Shown piece after piece: positions 11,476 to 17,658 of a DNA stretch of 64,000 bases. This DNA is from an uncultured delta proteobacterium (GTDB lineage Bacteria > Desulfobacterota > Binatia > Binatales > Binataceae). Made by a program: the position numbers and the translations under genes. Within the stretch, counting starts at the first letter, position 1; each line of letters opens with the position of its first letter. The notes under the pieces were generated by a model. The model had not been told where the DNA came from. It saw nothing but the letters and a program-made list of their open reading frames with translations, and ran no database searches. The stretch covers positions 64,001 through 128,000 of the forward strand of contig CAWCDG010000005.1 in assembly GCA_963794325.1 (NCBI GenBank). Reading direction: 5' to 3'.

Positions 11476-12111
11476 ATGGCCAACAACAACGACAACCCAA
11501 GGAGCAAACTGAACTTCACCGACTCAAATTTTTCCGATGAGATCCTGAAACTCGCTCAGTGCCTGATGCCCGAGCCACCCACCACCAAAGTGAAGCGGCT
11601 CGTCGCAACCATCGCCGACAAGGGAATCGATCGCCAGCTTCATGAACTCGGCTGGAAGGCATACGATACCGTGGTCGGCGTTGCCAACAATGCAACCAAT
11701 CGCGTCTTCACCAGTCCGACCGTAGGCAACCTGCTCGGCGGTGCAGTCGATATCATGCTCCGATACCAGCGCTTCAATATGGCCGTCGCCGGCGCATTCT
11801 TCTCGGCGCTGTGGCCGGCCGTCGGTCTGCCTTCCGCAAGCGAAGTCGAGTCGCTCCGCGTTGACGTGCGTGCGATGCGCGAGGATCTGCGCGACGCCGT
11901 CGCCGATCGCGACACCAAAGACGACTTCGCCAGTGACCTGCACCGCGCGATCCGCGAGTCGATCATTAGCCCGCGAACAGTCGACCAGGCTGCCGCCCTC
12001 GAATCGATCGGCCACAAGCACGCCGAGAGGTCCGGCGTGTACCAGTTCTCGGTATGGTCCGGATGGCCCAGCGCAGACCCGATGGAGCACGGGGAAGATG
12101 TCGGCAATTAA
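11476..12111 (+). CDS. PhaE-like subunit of class III PHA synthase (divergent)
   Basis: GAGG RBS; VGLPSASEVESLRVDVRAMR resembles the PhaE C-terminal LGLPTRSE.. coiled coil; overlaps phaC. Confidence 0.6.
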   Translation: MANNNDNPRSKLNFTDSNFSDEILKLAQCLMPEPPTTKVKRLVATIADKGIDRQLHELGWKAYDTVVGVANNATNRVFTSPTVGNLLGGAVDIMLRYQRFNMAVAGAFFSALWPAVGLPSASEVESLRVDVRAMREDLRDAVADRDTKDDFASDLHRAIRESIISPRTVDQAAALESIGHKHAERSGVYQFSVWSGWPSADPMEHGEDVGN

Positions 12112-13162
12112 CGAAATCGCTTCGCTCTGGATGGAAGGCACGATGCGCACGCTCGACGCGTTCCGCACCGGCTTCGGCGCCACGATGGACGATCCGCCGC
12201 CCGCGACGCGATCGCGCGTCATCTATGAGTCCGGCCTCGTGCGGCTGCGCCACTACCGCGCCCTCGGCGAAAACCCCAAGCGCGTGCCGCTGCTGCTCAT
12301 CTACTCCCTGATCAAACGCCCCTTTATCCTCGACCTGCAGCCCGGCCGCAGCGTCGTCGAGTATCTCGTCAAACAAGGCTTCGACGTTTACCTGATCGAC
12401 TGGATTCCACCGCGGGCCGACGACAAGGGCCACGGCTTCGACGAGTACGTCAACGTCGACATCGCCAACGCCGTCCGCGCCATCCAGATTTACACCGGCA
12501 TCCAGCAGATCTCGATCCTCGGCTACTGCTTCGGCGCGCTGCTCGGCCTGATGTACAGCGCGCTGCACAGCGGCAACGTCAAGAATCTCGTCACCTTGAC
12601 CATCCCGCTCGACACCAGCCCGCGCCAGTTGCCCATCGAGCATCTGACGGCCGCGATGTCCTCGCGCAGCGCCAAGATGATCGTCGATATGTACGGCAAC
12701 GCGCCGGCCTGGATGATCTACTCGTTCTTCAACACCCTCGCGCCGACCCATCACATGCTCGACAAGTTCGTCGGCGCATATCGCAGCTCGGCGCGGCCCG
12801 GCTACCTCGACACCTTCAAGCTGTTCGAGCGATGGCTCCATAGCGACGTGCCGATGGCCGGTCGAATCTTCCTCGAGACCTCCGAGATGTGGCGCGAGAA
12901 TTCGCTGGTCAAGGGCACGATGAAAGTCGGCGCATCGATCGCGGACCTCGCCGGCATCAAGATGCCGTTGTTGAACGTCATCGGCGACCGCGACGACATC
13001 GTCAATCCCGCATCGAGCGAGCCGCTCCCCGATTTGGTATCGAGCGACGACAAACAGAATCTGCACTACCCAACGGGCCACATGGGCGCGGCGATCAGCG
13101 CCGACTCGCTCAAGCGTCTATGGCCCCAAATCGCCAATTGGCTGAGTGCCCGCGATGAGTGA
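12098..13162 (+). CDS. phaC: Class III polyhydroxyalkanoate synthase PhaC
   Basis: PLLLIYSLIKRPFILDLQPGRSVV, DVYLIDW, lipase box GYCFG, Asp in RDDIV, His in TGHMG; 354 aa. Confidence 0.88.
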   Translation: MSAINEIASLWMEGTMRTLDAFRTGFGATMDDPPPATRSRVIYESGLVRLRHYRALGENPKRVPLLLIYSLIKRPFILDLQPGRSVVEYLVKQGFDVYLIDWIPPRADDKGHGFDEYVNVDIANAVRAIQIYTGIQQISILGYCFGALLGLMYSALHSGNVKNLVTLTIPLDTSPRQLPIEHLTAAMSSRSAKMIVDMYGNAPAWMIYSFFNTLAPTHHMLDKFVGAYRSSARPGYLDTFKLFERWLHSDVPMAGRIFLETSEMWRENSLVKGTMKVGASIADLAGIKMPLLNVIGDRDDIVNPASSEPLPDLVSSDDKQNLHYPTGHMGAAISADSLKRLWPQIANWLSARDE

Positions 13163-13349
13163 AGAAACCAAAACACCAGGCTCAACGCACAAGCGGCAAA
13201 AGAAACGGACCGACAAAGGTCCCAAAGGAAACGTAGCGTCCCAGAAGATCGCTGACGCCGTCGGCGCGGCAGCGAAAACAATTTCGATCCACAACGTTAG
13301 CAAAACAAACGGCGGGCACGAGCCGCGCCGGCCATCAGGAGAAAAAGGA

Positions 13350-13610
13350 ATGTCAGAGCACAAAGGGAACGGTTCCGTGTTAGAGGGTCTTACCAGCAAC
13401 CTGAACATCGAGGGCGCCAAGAAGTTCGCCGCGTGGTATATCGACACCAGCGAGAAAGTCGCCAAGCAGGCAATCGACTTCCAGGCGCAGGCGACCAAGT
13501 GGGCGAAAGAAACCCCGCTCGCTCCAATTTTCGACGCACAGCTCGAATACGGCAAAAAGTTTGTCGAGCGCTCGGCCAGCGCCGCCCGCAGCCTCTGGCG
13601 CATCGAATAA
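13350..13610 (+). CDS. Phasin-like small helical protein (alternative start at 13155)
   Basis: AGGA RBS before ATG; amphipathic helix (EKVAKQAIDFQAQATKWAKETPL); last gene of the pha run. Confidence 0.55.
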   Translation: MSEHKGNGSVLEGLTSNLNIEGAKKFAAWYIDTSEKVAKQAIDFQAQATKWAKETPLAPIFDAQLEYGKKFVERSASAARSLWRIE

Positions 13611-13634: not shown

Positions 13635-13668
13635 CCGTTGTCGCGCGCGGAATCGCGCGCGACAACGG
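13635..13668. terminator. Perfect 15-bp hairpin after the pha operon
   Basis: ccgttgtcgcgcgcg-gaat-cgcgcgcgacaacgg; no clear U-tract. Confidence 0.55.
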
Positions 13669-13707: not shown

Positions 13708-14973
13708 ATGGCTTCAGAACTCGCATCAGCCAACTCAGCCAACGCGCATGAGATCTCCCGCGACGAGCTCCGCGCCCGCCTGCGTGATCCCTCGCTGACC
13801 ATCCTCGATGTACTGCCCCAGGCCTCGTTCGTCGAGGCCCACATACCCCGCGCCATCAACATTCCGCTCGAGCAGATTCCCACTCAGGCGCGCGAGATAC
13901 TCCCCGACCTCGATGCTGACATCGCGGTTTACTGCGGCAAATTCACCTGAACTCGCGCCCAGGAGGCGGTCGCCTCTTTGCGTGAGCTTGGTTACTCGAA
14001 GGTCCGCGAATATCGCGGCGGCCTCGAGGACTGGATCGAGGCAGACGGACCAACCGAGCGCGTGAACGACGAAGTCTCGGAGCCGAAACCTGACGCCACG
14101 CCCGAGATTGCCGGCCCTCCGCTGAGCGCTTCGCCCGACGGCGCCGTCGGCCGCGGCCCTGCGCGCCTCTCCCGGATGCGCCGGCTCGACAAGTCGGTTC
14201 TCGACCTCGTCCAGCAACGCTCCACTTTGCAGCTGTTCACAATCTGGCTCGCAATGATCCTGCTGACCGGCCTCGCCTACTGGCTTGGCGCGATGCTCGG
14301 CGAGCACGGCCTCGTCGAACAGAGGCGACCCGTCCAGGCCGACCTCAGCGGATTCGCAAGTGCGCTATATTTCAGTTTCGTCACCGCAACTTCCATCGGT
14401 TATGGCGACATCGTGCCGGTCGGCGTTGCGCGCGTGGTCGCTGTAGCGGAGGCGATTGCCGGACTGCTGATCTTCGGCGCGGTCGTCGCCAAGTTCGTCT
14501 CGCATCGACAGGAAGAGTTAGTGAGCGAAATTCACCGCGTCACCTTCGAAGAACGGCTCGACCGCATCGAGACCAATCTGCATATGGTTGTTTCGGAACT
14601 GCTCGCGGTCACTGCGATGGTCGAAGCGAAGGCGCCGCTGAATCGAGTCACCACCCGGCTCGAGAGCGCCGTCATCCTTTTTGTGAGCGAATTGCGCACC
14701 ACCCGCGACCTGCTCTACCAGCCGCGCCTGATGGTCGAGGAAGGCGTGCTGGCCGGGATTCTTGCCACCCTCGCGTCGGCCATGAACGTGCTGGCCGAAC
14801 TGCTCGCGCTACTGCCGGATGAATTCTCGCGCTCGCAGGGATTAACCATTACCCTCGATCGTGTCACTGGTCTGGCCGAGGAGGTTTGCGGCGATTGCGT
14901 CCCCCACTCCTACACCCCAAGGCTCGTATTCTGGATGGACCGAATCCAGGCCACCGCCAAACGAATCAGATAA
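13708..14973 (+). CDS. Putative selenoprotein: rhodanese (YCGKFT-U) fused to a 2-TM K+ channel with a C-terminal helical CxxC domain, 421 aa
   Basis: ORFs 13708-13950 and 13978-14973 share a frame and are separated only by TGA 13948-13950; the rhodanese fold continues after it (LRELGYSKVREYRGGLEDW); FSFVTATSIGYGD filter; SECIS-like hairpin. Confidence 0.82.
13952..13986 (+). promoter_or_regulatory. Bacterial SECIS-like stem-loop
   Basis: Lower stem CTCGCGC/GCGTGAG, upper stem AGGAGGC/GCCTCTT, apical loop GGTC starting 18 nt after the TGA. Confidence 0.78.
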
Positions 14974-15572: not shown

Positions 15573-16901
15573 CTACGCCGATTGCGCATGCGTGCGCGGC
15601 CGGATCGATTCCGCCAAATCGGCCGCGAACTTGCCCGCATCTTCGACTGGCATGGTCGATGCCGTCACGCGGATTCCGGGCGCGCTTTTGATTCGATAGC
15701 ACTCGCCCGCCCGAATCGCCCAGCCTTTCGATGCCATCGCGTTCACCACGCCCGCTTCTTCCGCGACCGGCACCCACACGTTCAGCCCCGAGCGTCCGCG
15801 CGCCTCGATTCCGTGATTAGCGAGCGCTTCGATCAGCGCGCGCCGGCGATGCGCATAAGTATCGGCCGCTCTCCTCAGAATCGCCGGCGTCGCCGTGTCC
15901 GCCCACATCATCGCGACCAGGTCTTGCAGGATATGACTGACCCATCGCGGACCGAGGCTCTGCCGCCCCTGCACTCGCGCCACCGTCAGCGCATCACCTG
16001 CGACTGCGCTCACTCGCAAATCGGGACCGAGCGACTTCGACACCGACCGCACTGTCGCCCAATCCTTGCGGCCTCCCGACAATGTAATCGCTGGAGCGCC
16101 CGAAACCGGCCCGGCGTGATCGTCCTCGATCAAGACGACATCCGGAAACCCGGCGAGCACGTGCTTTAACTCGGACGCGCGTTTTCGATCGAGTGCCGCA
16201 CCGCTGGGATTCTGCGCACGCGGGGTCAAAATGAAGGCCTTCGCGCCGAGTTTGAGCGCGCGATTCAAATCCGCGGCCATCGGCCCCGAATCGTCGATCG
16301 CAACCGGCTCCGCCACCAGCGCCATCGCCGCAACCAGGTCGAGCACGCCGGTGTAGCTGGGATCTTCGACCGCGACGACGTCGCCGGGCCGCAGATGCGC
16401 CTGCAGGACGCGCTCGATACCGTCGAGCGCGCCGCTGACCACCGCAATCGAATCAGCCGCGATACCATCGCTCTTGAATTGCCGCGCGGCCAGCTTCACC
16501 AGGGCGGCGCGATTCTCGGCGTCGCCGTATTTGCCTGGAATTCCGTCGAGCCGCGCGAGAAACAGCTTCAACTTCGGCAGCATCGCCGGATCAGGCCCGC
16601 CGTCCGCCAGATTTCGCAGCCCGGGAGCGGGCGGCGGAAAGACCGCCCGGGTCAACAGCGGCGGCCGCCGATTGACGACGGTGCCGCGACGCCCCGAGCC
16701 ATGCACCAATCCACGGACCCGCAGCGCGTTATACGCCGCCGCCACCGTGGTCGGGCTGACGCGCAGCTTCGTGGCCAGCGCGCGCACGGTCGGCAGCCGC
16801 TCGCCGGCCTGCAACTTTCCGCCACGAATTCCATCTTCGATGCTCGCGGCGATCTGGTTGCTTGAATCTCCGCGGATTTGATATTGTACCGATACGTTCA
16901 T
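15573..16901 (-). CDS. MocR/GabR-type GntR regulator with PLP-dependent aminotransferase domain
   Basis: GERLPTVRALA..VSPTTVAAAY wHTH; PRAQNPSG, IEDDH, RSVSKSLGPDLR. Confidence 0.93.
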   Translation of the reverse strand: MNVSVQYQIRGDSSNQIAASIEDGIRGGKLQAGERLPTVRALATKLRVSPTTVAAAYNALRVRGLVHGSGRRGTVVNRRPPLLTRAVFPPPAPGLRNLADGGPDPAMLPKLKLFLARLDGIPGKYGDAENRAALVKLAARQFKSDGIAADSIAVVSGALDGIERVLQAHLRPGDVVAVEDPSYTGVLDLVAAMALVAEPVAIDDSGPMAADLNRALKLGAKAFILTPRAQNPSGAALDRKRASELKHVLAGFPDVVLIEDDHAGPVSGAPAITLSGGRKDWATVRSVSKSLGPDLRVSAVAGDALTVARVQGRQSLGPRWVSHILQDLVAMMWADTATPAILRRAADTYAHRRRALIEALANHGIEARGRSGLNVWVPVAEEAGVVNAMASKGWAIRAGECYRIKSAPGIRVTASTMPVEDAGKFAADLAESIRPRTHAQSA

Positions 16902-16932
16902 AGTTACGTACTGTAACAAAGAGGCAAGGTAG

Positions 16933-17658
16933 ATGGAAGAGGCGACGCAGATCCCGCAGACGGCCAATCCGAACGACAGCAGCCACTCGATCGCGGCCAC
17001 CGATCGAACGCGCGTCAAGCGCCTGCCCAAGCGCGCTTCATACGACCGCGAAACCATCTACTCGATCCTCGATACCGCGCTGGTCTGCCACGTTGGTTTC
17101 GCAATCGATAGGCAACCCTACGTGATTCCCACGCTTCACGTTCGTATCGACGACCGTCTTTATATTCATGGATCGGCGGCGAGCCGGATGCTTGGCGCCG
17201 CGGCCGACGGCACGCCGCTAGCGGTCACGGTGACGCATATCGACGGCTTGGTGCTCGCGCGATCGGCGTTCCATCATTCGGTCAACTACCGTTCAGTCGT
17301 GATTCTGGGCAATGCGACCCTGGTCACCGATCCGGCTGAGAAGCTGATCGTGATGAAGGGGCTTATCGATCACGTTGCGCCGGGCCGATGGGACCATATT
17401 CGGCATCCGAACGCGAAGGAGCTCGGCGCGACGTCGGTTCTGTCGATTCCAATCGTCGAGGCGTCGGCGAAGCTCAGGAGCGGCGACCCGTTCGACGACG
17501 AAGCCGACTACGCGATGCCGATTTGGGCGGGACAGATTCCGTTTGCGACGGGAACGTTGACCCCGATCGCCGATGGACGCCTCGAGGCCTCGACACCGAT
17601 TCCTGCGCACGTAGCCGAGTACGCGTTGCCCTTGAATCGAGGAGCAAGAGTTACATGA
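16933..17658 (+). CDS. Pyridoxamine 5'-phosphate oxidase-like flavin-binding protein
   Basis: LYIHGSAASRM, DGLVLARSAFHHSVNYRSVV; usual divergent partner of MocR regulators. Confidence 0.92.
   Translation: MEEATQIPQTANPNDSSHSIAATDRTRVKRLPKRASYDRETIYSILDTALVCHVGFAIDRQPYVIPTLHVRIDDRLYIHGSAASRMLGAAADGTPLAVTVTHIDGLVLARSAFHHSVNYRSVVILGNATLVTDPAEKLIVMKGLIDHVAPGRWDHIRHPNAKELGATSVLSIPIVEASAKLRSGDPFDDEADYAMPIWAGQIPFATGTLTPIADGRLEASTPIPAHVAEYALPLNRGARVT

Follow-up and report, generated by a model that had tools for sequence, protein, structure and literature searches.

The question raised by this locus is whether two adjacent open reading frames in the window (the whole stretch of DNA that was analysed, 64,000 nucleotides) are in fact one gene for a selenoprotein in which a rhodanese is joined to a K+ channel. 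The first frame (13708..13950, 80 aa) ends at the TGA at 13948-13950, and the second (13978..14973) lies in the same frame at an offset of 270 nt. This TGA is the sole in-frame stop from 13708 up to the final TAA (14971-14973), and reading through it gives one 421-aa protein, ...IAVYCGKFT-U-TRAQEAVASLRELGYSKVREYRGGLEDW.... The initial annotation had described two ORFs in one frame split by a single TGA; this was borne out, with no further stop found, and the read-through sequence that it proposed was reproduced as first written. It had also left the TGA itself to be confirmed in reads, and contigs of runs X1, X2 and X4 show only TGA at 13948-13950. The four runs examined are DNA contigs of a single study, to which these three all belong; X1 is possibly the source sample itself. 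Since the contigs of the three runs agree and 67 other species genomes carry a TGA at the aligned codon, the TGA is no sequencing slip. A search for expression found no RNA run containing the stretch, and on the gene's strand between 13300 and 15600 there was no promoter-like and no terminator-like site. The features of the gene are collected in Table 1.

Table 1. Features of the gene and their coordinates in the window.
Feature	Position (strand)	Details and basis
Whole gene	13708..14973 (+)	421 codons including one Sec-UGA; stop TAA 14971-14973
Rhodanese homology domain	13759..14040 (+)	Pfam PF00581, residues 18-111, 60.4 bits (cut-off 22.2)
Cys76 (TGC), canonical rhodanese active-site cysteine (VYC)	13933..13935 (+)	Aligns with YC of solved rhodaneses
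Sec81 (TGA), second chalcogen of the C-x4-U active-site loop	13948..13950 (+)	TGA or TGC/TGT in relatives
SECIS-like stem-loop	13952..13986 (+)	MFE and centroid structures
Pro-rich linker, predicted disordered, residues 121-155	14068..14172 (+)	pLDDT <50, residues 122-155
Helix 156-170, directly before TM1	14173..14217 (+)	Predicted secondary structure
TM1, residues 173-196	14224..14295 (+)	Predicted structure; Pfam Ion_trans and IRK partial matches over 170-261
Pore helix and selectivity filter T-S-I-G-Y-G-D	14344..14409 (+)	Filter 14389-14409, residues 228-234
TM2, from residue 240	14425..14502 (+)	Predicted helix H240-306
C-terminal five-helix domain, 155 residues	14503..14970 (+)	Prediction pLDDT 92.3, pTM 0.84
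C394-G-D-C397, within motif I-C-x-x-C-V-P	14887..14898 (+)	Alignments A6, A3

The N-terminal part of the read-through protein is a rhodanese, with a folded domain of approximately residues 8-120 (AF2 pLDDT 85-97 per ten-residue block over residues 11-120). The 80-aa first ORF stops within the active-site loop of this domain, and the second half follows the TGA. The initial annotation had inferred a rhodanese cut in exactly this way, and both the Pfam match, which spans residue 81, and the predicted fold indeed cross the TGA. In Foldseek the best matches were rhodaneses with a TM-score (target) of ∼0.8; the matches listed were single-domain rhodaneses such as 3nhv and 3ilm, and YgaP (PDB 5hbo) was also among the fold matches. 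The active-site loop, C-G-K-F-T-U, is two residues longer than that of solved rhodaneses. Cys76 is invariant (58/58 rows of alignment A6), as are U81, C394 and C397 across the same 58 aligned family members, and the C-x4-C loop is a feature of the whole family. A second gene of the same genome carries the same C-x4-U rhodanese module fused to a CBS domain.

If codon 81 is read as Sec, relatives should be informative, and we examined it in two sets of genomes that overlap and contain related genomes, so that the counts below are not independent events. In the genus set (47 genomes, source genome included) an ortholog was present at E <= 1e-40 in 30 genomes. The part covering codon 81 contained one TGA in 25 of these, no stop in 4, and Cys together with a frameshift in 1. 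For the 19 genus loci in which the site was located, a count that omits L024 (the motif search missed its site), the loop read VYCG[KQ]FT-U in 15, VYCG[KN]LT-C in 3, and VYCAKFT-C in 1 (TGT, frameshifted); the Sec81 position was verified in 15 same-genus orthologs. The wider set comprised 80 loci from other species genomes, with TGA at codon 81 in 67, TGC in 6, TGT in 4, and 3 loci in which the codon was uncovered. A complete frame of 401-444 aa with exactly one TGA was found in 66 of the 67 TGA loci, and the TGA was kept down to 41% protein identity with both flanks conserved. The initial annotation would have been refuted by relatives with TAA or TAG at this codon or with two separate genes. 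Among the 80 loci neither occurred, and the gene was always one fused frame with TGA (67/80) or TGC/TGT (10/80). The alignment of UGA with Cys, which the annotation had put forward as the hallmark of Sec, was thus found in these 10 loci, and also in 11 of the 13 more distant database relatives whose N-terminal region is retained (the other two have Gly and Ser, one each). In a tree of 83 rows the Cys clades are nested among Sec forms, and the Sec/Cys state switches at least 7 times, with at least 3 of the switches forced by well-supported branches. The family is common in soil MAGs of Binatia and Acidobacteriota, and single records are titled Eisenbacteria, Gemmatales and others.

The source genome, a Binatus-like soil MAG, has the machinery that such decoding needs. 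SelA (515 bits), the wing domain of SelB (74 bits), selD (377 bits; Sec-containing, with an in-frame TGA of its own) and a tRNA-Sec (selC, anticodon tca) were all detected, so that the check on selA, selB, selC and selD on which the initial annotation had made its case depend came out in its favour. TGA is the usual, and the commonest, stop of this genome, since it ends 1136 of the 2260 stop-to-stop frames of at least 350 codons. Within the genus, SelA was present in 24 of the 25 genomes with a TGA ortholog, the exception being a 64% complete genome, and 8 of the 9 genomes without SelA are also without the gene.

A SECIS-like hairpin follows the UGA. Its upper stem has 7 bp (13961-13967 / 13972-13978), its lower stem is formed by 13952-13958 / 13980-13986, and its 4-nt apical loop, GGUC (13968-13971), has G in first place and lies 17 nt downstream of the UGA; the MFE is -11.9 kcal/mol (nt 10-40 after the U of UGA). 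The four published bSECIS criteria ask for an apical loop of 3-9 nt, an upper stem of at least 4 bp, a G in the first two loop positions, a distance of 16-37 nt from the UGA and an MFE of -7.5 or lower (PMC13188914), and the window hairpin satisfies all of them. When scripted strictly, these criteria were passed by 46 of 68 family sequences, and most failures had a 3-bp top stem above a one-base bulge. Across 67 sequences 74.6% of the cells in the stem pair, compared with 31-50% when the partners are slid, and the mean MFE of nt 10-36 was -12.1 in 67 Sec forms versus -7.4 in 10 Cys forms. For 15 same-genus sequences 62.9% of cells pair in the register without a bulge, versus 83.3% with a one-base bulge; RNAalifold gave a weak alternative structure without covariation for the same number of same-genus sequences. 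Covariation of the hairpin was not above that of shuffles (97/500 reach the observed score), a consequence of the conserved stem sequence and of its overlap with conserved codons (Q-A-V-G/A-L-L). The 63-nt fold was not unusual for its composition (z = -1.06), and an Rfam scan of 13880-14060 gave only chance-level matches and no SECIS family.

These data bear directly on two other readings of codon 81. If the TGA were a true stop, the locus would be a nonsense-mutated pseudogene, or an 80-aa rhodanese fragment followed by a separately started channel. Gene callers do split the locus, hence the 330-aa database products, and the TTG at 13978 is a conceivable start codon. However, a TGA that recurs at this codon in 67 of the 80 species genomes, with conserved flanks and no second stop, is hard to reconcile with a stop, as are the Cys codons in the remaining 10 loci that cover the site, a domain whose 80-aa first piece ends inside the active-site loop with its second half downstream, and a gene presence that tracks SelA; the true-stop reading is disfavoured and in our estimate highly improbable. 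We give just as little credence to the idea that reassignment or near-cognate decoding inserts Trp, Cys or Gly at the UGA. One database relative, P0029, does have W at the site, for which a TGG codon and translation of TGA as Trp are both possible, but the source genome uses TGA as its commonest stop and has the full Sec machinery, and the hairpin at SECIS distance accompanies the TGA and is weaker in Cys forms. We conclude that the gene at 13708-14973 is very probably a genuine selenoprotein of rhodanese-K+ channel architecture; direct evidence that it is expressed or that selenium is incorporated is lacking.

Beyond the rhodanese domain, every element that the initial annotation had listed was present, namely the Pro-rich linker, a TM1-pore-TM2 unit with its TSIGYGD filter, and a helical tail with CGDC. 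The linker differs in length and sequence among orthologs, and the predicted helix that follows it may be an interfacial or slide-type helix. The features of a two-TM K+ channel pore were met by the score of Ion_trans_2 (PF07885; residues 214-264, 51.4 bits, cut-off 22.5), the TxGYGD filter and the flanking helices 173-196 and 240-306, with the TM2 helix unbroken to residue 306 in the predicted structure. The filter residues G231, G233 and D234 are invariant in A6. We infer from this architecture that the protein forms a tetrameric K+ channel; the tetramer, conduction and K+ selectivity are all inferred. The C-terminal domain matched no Pfam family, and its fold search returned no PDB match at E <= 0.001, the best being designed helical repeats. 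As it stands, this domain has no known relative to guide the mechanism of a gating model. Its cysteine motif is conserved: C394, C397 and P399 are invariant in 58/58 rows of A6, and in alignment A3 (25 rows) C394 is invariant and C397 is found in at least 90%. His400, which follows CxxCVP, is present in the window protein and in 16/16 rows of A2, and this residue is R, Q, T or others in more distant relatives. Predicted docking of the C-terminal domain against the rhodanese domain, for Cys-form database proteins, gave scores of 0.43, 0.00 and 0.00, which speak neither for nor against a contact between the two.

The protein database searched contains the Sec forms only as fragments of ∼330 aa called "ion channel" or "hypothetical". 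Among the best 120 matches, 62 are records of 265-342 aa that have PF07885 only and begin right after the TGA (mostly 72-84% identical, with one 265-aa fragment at 94%), and the other 58 have both domains and are 57-68% identical. Of the 11 two-domain records that were aligned, 10 have Cys at the codon-81 site and one, P0029, has Trp. The truncated records, some of which JGI names 'potassium channel LctB', are the expected artefact of gene callers splitting the Sec forms. None of the NCBIfam selenoprotein models reaches its cut-off with the read-through protein, and annotation pipelines and selenoproteome surveys miss the Sec family because its database forms appear only truncated. Gene neighbours are common only to close kin, which share an upstream PhaC-like gene (18 of the 80 loci), a 154-aa ORF (19), a MocR-type regulator (9) and a PNPOx-like gene (3); no neighbour gene is conserved across the family in these 80 loci. 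In the window, no sulfur, selenium or metal genes lie adjacent to the gene, and no ars, mer or cop genes. The initial annotation knew of no described Sec-containing channel, and our full-text literature search agreed with it, finding neither such a channel nor a rhodanese-K+ channel fusion, with supplements and one key paper outside the search. Both searched words occur in "The algal selenoproteomes", in unrelated passages.

Altogether, the best explanation is a 421-residue selenoprotein that combines a rhodanese domain with a K+ pore, to which we assign a probability of roughly 0.85. What was observed is the structure of the gene and its domains, the pairing of Sec with Cys among relatives, the hairpin and the Sec machinery, and the following mechanism goes beyond these observations. 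SelB and tRNA-Sec would decode the UGA at codon 81 as Sec under the direction of the stem-loop, which begins 4 nt beyond the UGA. From N to C terminus, the product would consist of a cytoplasmic rhodanese with Cys76 and Sec81, a disordered tether of ∼35 residues, a 2-TM K+ pore, and the five-helix CxxC domain continuing TM2. We infer that Cys76 and Sec81 could together form a two-chalcogen switch (thiol/selenol, persulfide or S-Se bond) that informs the gate about sulfane sulfur or redox state, and possibly about selenium; the C-terminal domain with its CxxC may relay this signal. Synthesis of the full-length channel would require available selenium, because the UGA comes before the part that encodes the pore. 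That the state of the rhodanese loop gates the channel is a tentative inference without functional data. The same reserve applies to the wider proposal, possible though short of probable, that this is the first ion channel known with Sec, gated by a tethered Cys-x4-Sec rhodanese that responds to sulfane sulfur, redox or selenium, and with selenium-dependent synthesis.

A genuine selenoprotein might also work differently. The rhodanese could be a working sulfur or selenium transferase at the membrane, with the channel part serving as a tetrameric anchor or having an independent function and K+ flux not gated by the loop. The protein retains the canonical catalytic Cys76 and has a long, disordered tether, YgaP (PDB 5hbo) is a membrane-anchored rhodanese without a channel, and nearly all known rhodanese selenoproteins are regarded as enzymes (PMC13188914 table). 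On the other hand, the filter, the TM2 glycine, the C-terminal domain and the CxxC are conserved like the rhodanese loop, which suggests one co-evolving unit, and fusion of the C-x4-U module to a CBS (regulatory) domain is a context typical of sensors; neither point is decisive, and we consider this transferase unlikely without dismissing it. Quite unlikely, in our judgement, is that a soft metal or metalloid (As, Hg, Cu, Se) is bound by C76/U81, perhaps with the help of C394/C397, and that the channel responds to this ligand instead of to sulfane sulfur or redox state. Arsenate reductases with a rhodanese fold exist. The protein offers four invariant chalcogen residues and, here and in all 16 A2 rows, a histidine after CxxCVP. 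Moreover, the 2026 review (PMC13188914) links the majority of predicted transporter-linked selenoproteins to resistance against metals or metalloids and names Sec as a possible metal ligand. This histidine is not invariant, however, and the family has neither conserved neighbours nor, in the window, ars, mer or cop genes beside the gene.

If instead the gene encodes a channel with a Sec-containing rhodanese sensor, Sec would be a regulatory sensor residue and not the catalytic residue of an enzyme. Almost all known selenoproteins are redox enzymes. With Sec in a domain that regulates a K+ channel, the biology of selenium would reach into ion transport and signalling. As the C-x4-U rhodanese also occurs CBS-fused in the same genome, it would amount to a sensor module that is based on selenium and portable. 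Natural Sec and Cys versions coexist, which would make the family a tractable experimental model for the gating of channels by chalcogens.

Among known systems, KefB/KefC offer a functional analogy only: these glutathione-gated K+ efflux systems place K+ flux under thiol chemistry in a cytoplasmic domain, but they have a CPA2 antiporter fold with an RCK/KTN sensor, and no rhodanese, Sec or homology to the window protein is known for them. In YgaP of E. coli a cytoplasmic rhodanese domain is likewise joined to transmembrane helices, with no known pore signature, second loop chalcogen or Sec. A 2026 review (PMC13188914) lists five Sec-rhodanese forms, none of them C-x4-U and none a channel, and the word 'channel' is absent from its main text. 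Forms 1-4 (UxxS, UxxG, CxU, which is NF041203 'rhodanese_LYCAU', and UxxG; none listed as a fusion) resemble our protein in having the rhodanese fold, a Sec within or next to the active-site loop, and Cys homologues. By the review's motifs, Sec comes first in forms 1, 2 and 4, where in our own reading it replaces the catalytic Cys, and stands two residues after Cys in form 3; in the window protein the catalytic Cys is kept and Sec comes five residues later in a lengthened loop. Membership of NF041203 was rejected (33.9 bits versus a cut-off of 115; motif C-x4-U, not C-x-U). TsoB, as listed in the review's table (PMC13188914), is also a selenoprotein with a rhodanese loop that has two chalcogens four apart and is fused to an integral-membrane part. 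Both of its chalcogens are Sec (U-x4-U) and its membrane domain is DsbD-like, whereas the window protein has Cys plus Sec, a K+ pore and a novel helical domain. Membership of the TsoB model (NF045694) was rejected as well, at 27.9 bits versus a cut-off of 805 and over the rhodanese part only. With 2-TM K+ channels of the KcsA / LctB type (PF07885) the protein shares TM1, the pore helix, the TxGYGD filter and a TM2 extending as a cytoplasmic helix, and it differs from them by its extra tethered N-terminal rhodanese, its five-helix CxxC domain and its Sec.

We conclude that the gene at 13708-14973 is a real selenoprotein gene of rhodanese-K+ channel architecture, an identity that is well supported (probability about 0.85-0.9). 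As the initial annotation had proposed, two ORFs of the same frame can be read through as one. An 80-codon ORF (13708-13950) has TGA as its last codon, a 331-codon ORF is called from a TTG at 13978, 270 nt after the start of the first, and translation of 13708-14973 with TGA as selenocysteine (Sec, U) gave 421 residues with U81 as the sole recoded position (...IAVYCGKFT-U-TRAQEAV...). The Pfam rhodanese domain (residues 18-111) straddles the TGA, and an Ion_trans_2 pore was found at residues 214-264; the positions previously reported for the selectivity filter and the CGDC motif were exact (see table). The TGA itself was recovered without any alternative letter in contigs over 13948-13950 from three sequencing runs (X1, X2 and X4). 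Since these all belong to one soil study and X1 is possibly the source sample, this agreement rules out an assembly slip only. Between the gene start and an upstream 154-aa ORF (stop at 13608-13610) lies a perfect 15-bp inverted repeat (13635-13668, loop GAAT); read by eye it lacks a T tract, which is why it is absent from the terminator scan.

Positions of features in the gene and its read-through product
Feature	Position	Basis
Upper stem of hairpin, 7 bp	13961-13967 / 13972-13978	fold of 63 nt from the UGA
Selectivity filter TSIGYGD	14389-14409	read-through protein
CGDC	14887-14898	read-through protein
Rhodanese domain	about residues 8-120	AlphaFold2, confident
Pro-rich disordered tether	residues 122-155	AlphaFold2
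Short helix	residues 156-170	AlphaFold2
TM1	residues 173-196	AlphaFold2
Pore helix	residues 213-228	AlphaFold2
Single long helix, TM2 into cytoplasm (four more helices follow it)	residues 240-306	AlphaFold2

The absence of Sec machinery would have refuted the initial annotation, and this machinery is complete in the source genome. Its assembly (10 contigs, 4.45 Mb, 85% complete) contained SelA (515 bits), the SelB-specific wing domain (74 bits), SelD (377 bits) and a tRNA-Sec gene with anticodon tca. The selD gene (G000:C4:1158546-1159820, minus strand) adjoins selB and has its own in-frame TGA (...CKAAG-U-AGKLGP...), so its product is itself a selenoprotein. TGA ended 1136 of 2260 stop-to-stop frames of at least 350 codons, and is therefore the commonest stop rather than a reassigned sense codon. 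A second candidate selenoprotein of the genome lies outside the window (G000:C2, locus L106 804..1520, minus strand), with one in-frame TGA in a loop of the same C-x4-U type (VVAYCRDSL-U-DLS). In its 238-aa product a rhodanese domain (45.9 bits) precedes a CBS domain (25.7 bits), and downstream of the TGA lies a hairpin of 7 bp with GGC as its loop. The product reached the cut-off of no NCBIfam selenoprotein model; rhodanese matches with one TGA and 35-38% identity in many genomes of the genus may be its orthologs.

Whether orthologs keep TGA or a Cys codon at this site, a check proposed in the initial annotation, was answered by scanning a single genome from each species. Among the best 80 of the 155 relatives found, the aligned codon was TGA in 67, TGC in 6 and TGT in 4, with 3 not covered, and in 66 of the 67 TGA loci reading through this TGA, the only one, gave a complete frame of 401-444 aa, whereas a contig end truncates the remaining locus. 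By record title these 80 loci were mostly Binatus, Binataceae, Binatia and "delta proteobacterium" MAGs, the remainder being Acidobacteriota, Eisenbacteria, Gemmatales, Verrucomicrobiia, Myxococcota and Methylococcaceae. Within the genus, 30 of 47 genomes (source genome counted; G019 and G024, included here, are flagged unpublished) had an ortholog at E <= 1e-40. Exactly one TGA was present in the part spanning codon 81 in 25 of the 30, four had no stop, and one had two TGA codons and on inspection carried TGT (Cys) at the site and a frameshift right after it. Direct reading of the site in 19 genus loci (in one more, L024, the motif search did not find it) gave VYCG[KQ]FT-U-[TMH]R in 15, VYCG[KN]LT-C-DR in 3 and VYCAKFT-C in 1; the remaining 10 TGA genomes rest on the stop count only. 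SelA was found in 38 of the 47 genomes and in 24 of the 25 with TGA (the lone exception is 64% complete), and the gene was also missing in 8 of the 9 genomes lacking SelA. The species and genus sets overlap and their genomes are related, so these counts should not be taken as independent observations.

A maximum-likelihood tree was built from 83 rows (67 Sec, 16 Cys), without the partial or frameshifted loci L047, L062, L063, L065 and L073. On it Cys clades were nested among Sec forms, with at least 7 state changes, of which at least 3 were forced by well-supported branches. The tree has no known root and so does not tell which way the changes ran. One locus of the genus (L025/L062, from the 63% complete genome G033) has TGT at the Sec site and then a one-base frameshift, with downstream sequence still similar to the stem of the SECIS element in Sec forms; a recent change from Sec to Cys, decay of the copy and an assembly error are all possible explanations. 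Two further copies look like decayed paralogues, namely L065, with TGA at a conserved Gly of the TM1-pore loop (GEH-U-LLE) and its N-terminal part missing in frame, and a fragment of a second copy interrupted by TGA and TAG (G007:C1:173283-174012).

Protein database records showed the annotation artefact that the Sec reading predicts. Of the best 120 matches, 62 were products of 265-342 aa with PF07885 only, starting right after the TGA, mostly 72-84% identical (94% for one 265-aa fragment) and named "Ion channel", "potassium channel LctB" or "hypothetical protein". Both domains were present in the remaining 58, at 57-68% identity, some labelled "rhodanese-like domain-containing protein" by NCBI; in 11 that were aligned, the Sec site held Cys in 10 and Trp in one. 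The latter, a full-length JGI metagenome protein (P0029, VYCGKFT-W-QLGEQ), would, judged from the protein sequence alone, go back either to a TGG codon or to a TGA that was rendered as Trp when its contig was translated. Clusters at 50% identity gave the same pattern down to 37% identity, with Cys in 11 of 13 full-length relatives, Gly in one and Ser in one, and many ORFs starting 5-13 residues past the site.

Downstream of the UGA, the 63-nt fold placed a hairpin with apical loop GGUC on a lower stem. The bacterial SECIS model calls for a loop of 3-9 nt with G in its first two positions, an upper stem of at least 4 bp, a distance of 16-37 nt from the UGA and an MFE of at most -7.5 (PMC13188914). 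The window hairpin satisfies all four criteria (4-nt loop beginning GG, 7 bp, 17 nt, -11.9 kcal/mol), and a strict scripted version was passed by 46 of 68 sequences, failures mostly having a 3-bp top stem over a bulge. In 67 aligned rows (the window and 66 distinct sequences) 74.6% of cells paired in a single register, versus 31-50% with the 3' partners slid. Covariation was not above that of shuffles (observed score reached by 97 of 500), the 63-nt fold was unexceptional for its composition (z = -1.06), and no Rfam family matched the region. Conserved codons (Q-A-V-G/A-L-L) coincide with the stem, so its sequence conservation by itself could reflect constraint on the protein as well as on the RNA. 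Mean MFE over nt 10-36 was -12.1 for Sec forms (n=67) versus -7.4 for Cys forms (n=10), and the loss of the 3' arm in the latter is the best argument for a role of the RNA.

An AlphaFold2 model from a 58-row alignment had a mean pLDDT of 88; its pTM of 0.55 leaves the domain arrangement undefined, and the Foldseek matches listed for the whole model were all rhodanese domains. Cys76 aligns with the canonical active-site cysteine of solved rhodaneses, the loop is two residues longer than theirs, and Sec81 sits in the extra part, right before the next helix. C76, U81, C394, C397 and P399 were invariant in all 58 rows. Folded separately, the C-terminal 160 residues reached pLDDT 92.3 and pTM 0.84, with no PDB match at E <= 0.001 and no Pfam family.

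From established knowledge of 2-TM K+ channels, the protein would be a K+-selective tetramer with both termini cytoplasmic. Cys76 and Sec81 could serve as a two-chalcogen switch (thiol/selenol, Cys persulfide or S-Se bond), whose state might be relayed to the gate, possibly via the CxxC-bearing helical domain continuing from TM2, and selenium shortage would cause termination at UGA81 and hence no channel synthesis; these steps are inferred. Such gating is a reasoned hypothesis that we hold only tentatively. The main rivals are that the rhodanese acts as a sulfur or selenium transferase that is merely tethered and takes no part in gating, or that the protein senses soft metals or metalloids, and the related loci offered no conserved neighbour gene to choose between them. 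A PhaC-like alpha/beta hydrolase gene (PhaC_N and Abhydrolase_1) and then the 154-aa ORF, which has no Pfam family, lie upstream (11741-13610), and are found ahead of the channel gene in 18 and 19, respectively, of the best 80 of 155 loci, all close kin. Downstream (15573-17658) a minus-strand MocR-type regulator (GntR and aminotransferase domains) is divergent from a pyridoxamine-5'-phosphate-oxidase-like gene, a gene pair characteristic of vitamin B6-related regulation, which appears unrelated to the selenoprotein gene.

Full-text searches of the literature turned up no report of a K+ channel fused to a rhodanese or of any channel containing Sec, supplementary tables and Haft & Tolstoy 2025 being outside this scope, and neither rhodanese nor channel is named in the deep-Sep paper's main text. 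Within that scope, the fusion is a previously unannotated selenoprotein family, widespread in soil bacteria. Five forms of rhodanese-type selenoprotein (UxxS, UxxG, CxU, UxxG and UxxxxU, the last being TsoB, in which a rhodanese is fused to a DsbD-like part) appear in a 2026 review together with several Sec-containing transporter subunits, the word "channel" being absent from its main text (PMC13188914). No model of NCBIfam release 20 was reached by the 421-residue protein, which scored 33.9 against a cut-off of 115 for NF041203 (rhodanese_LYCAU) and 27.9 against 805 for TsoB (NF045694). TsoB, in which two chalcogens are spaced as here and a rhodanese is likewise joined to a membrane domain, is the nearest idea but a separate family; the protein described here joins a new C-x4-U rhodanese variant, the pore of a K+ channel and a novel helical domain bearing CxxC.
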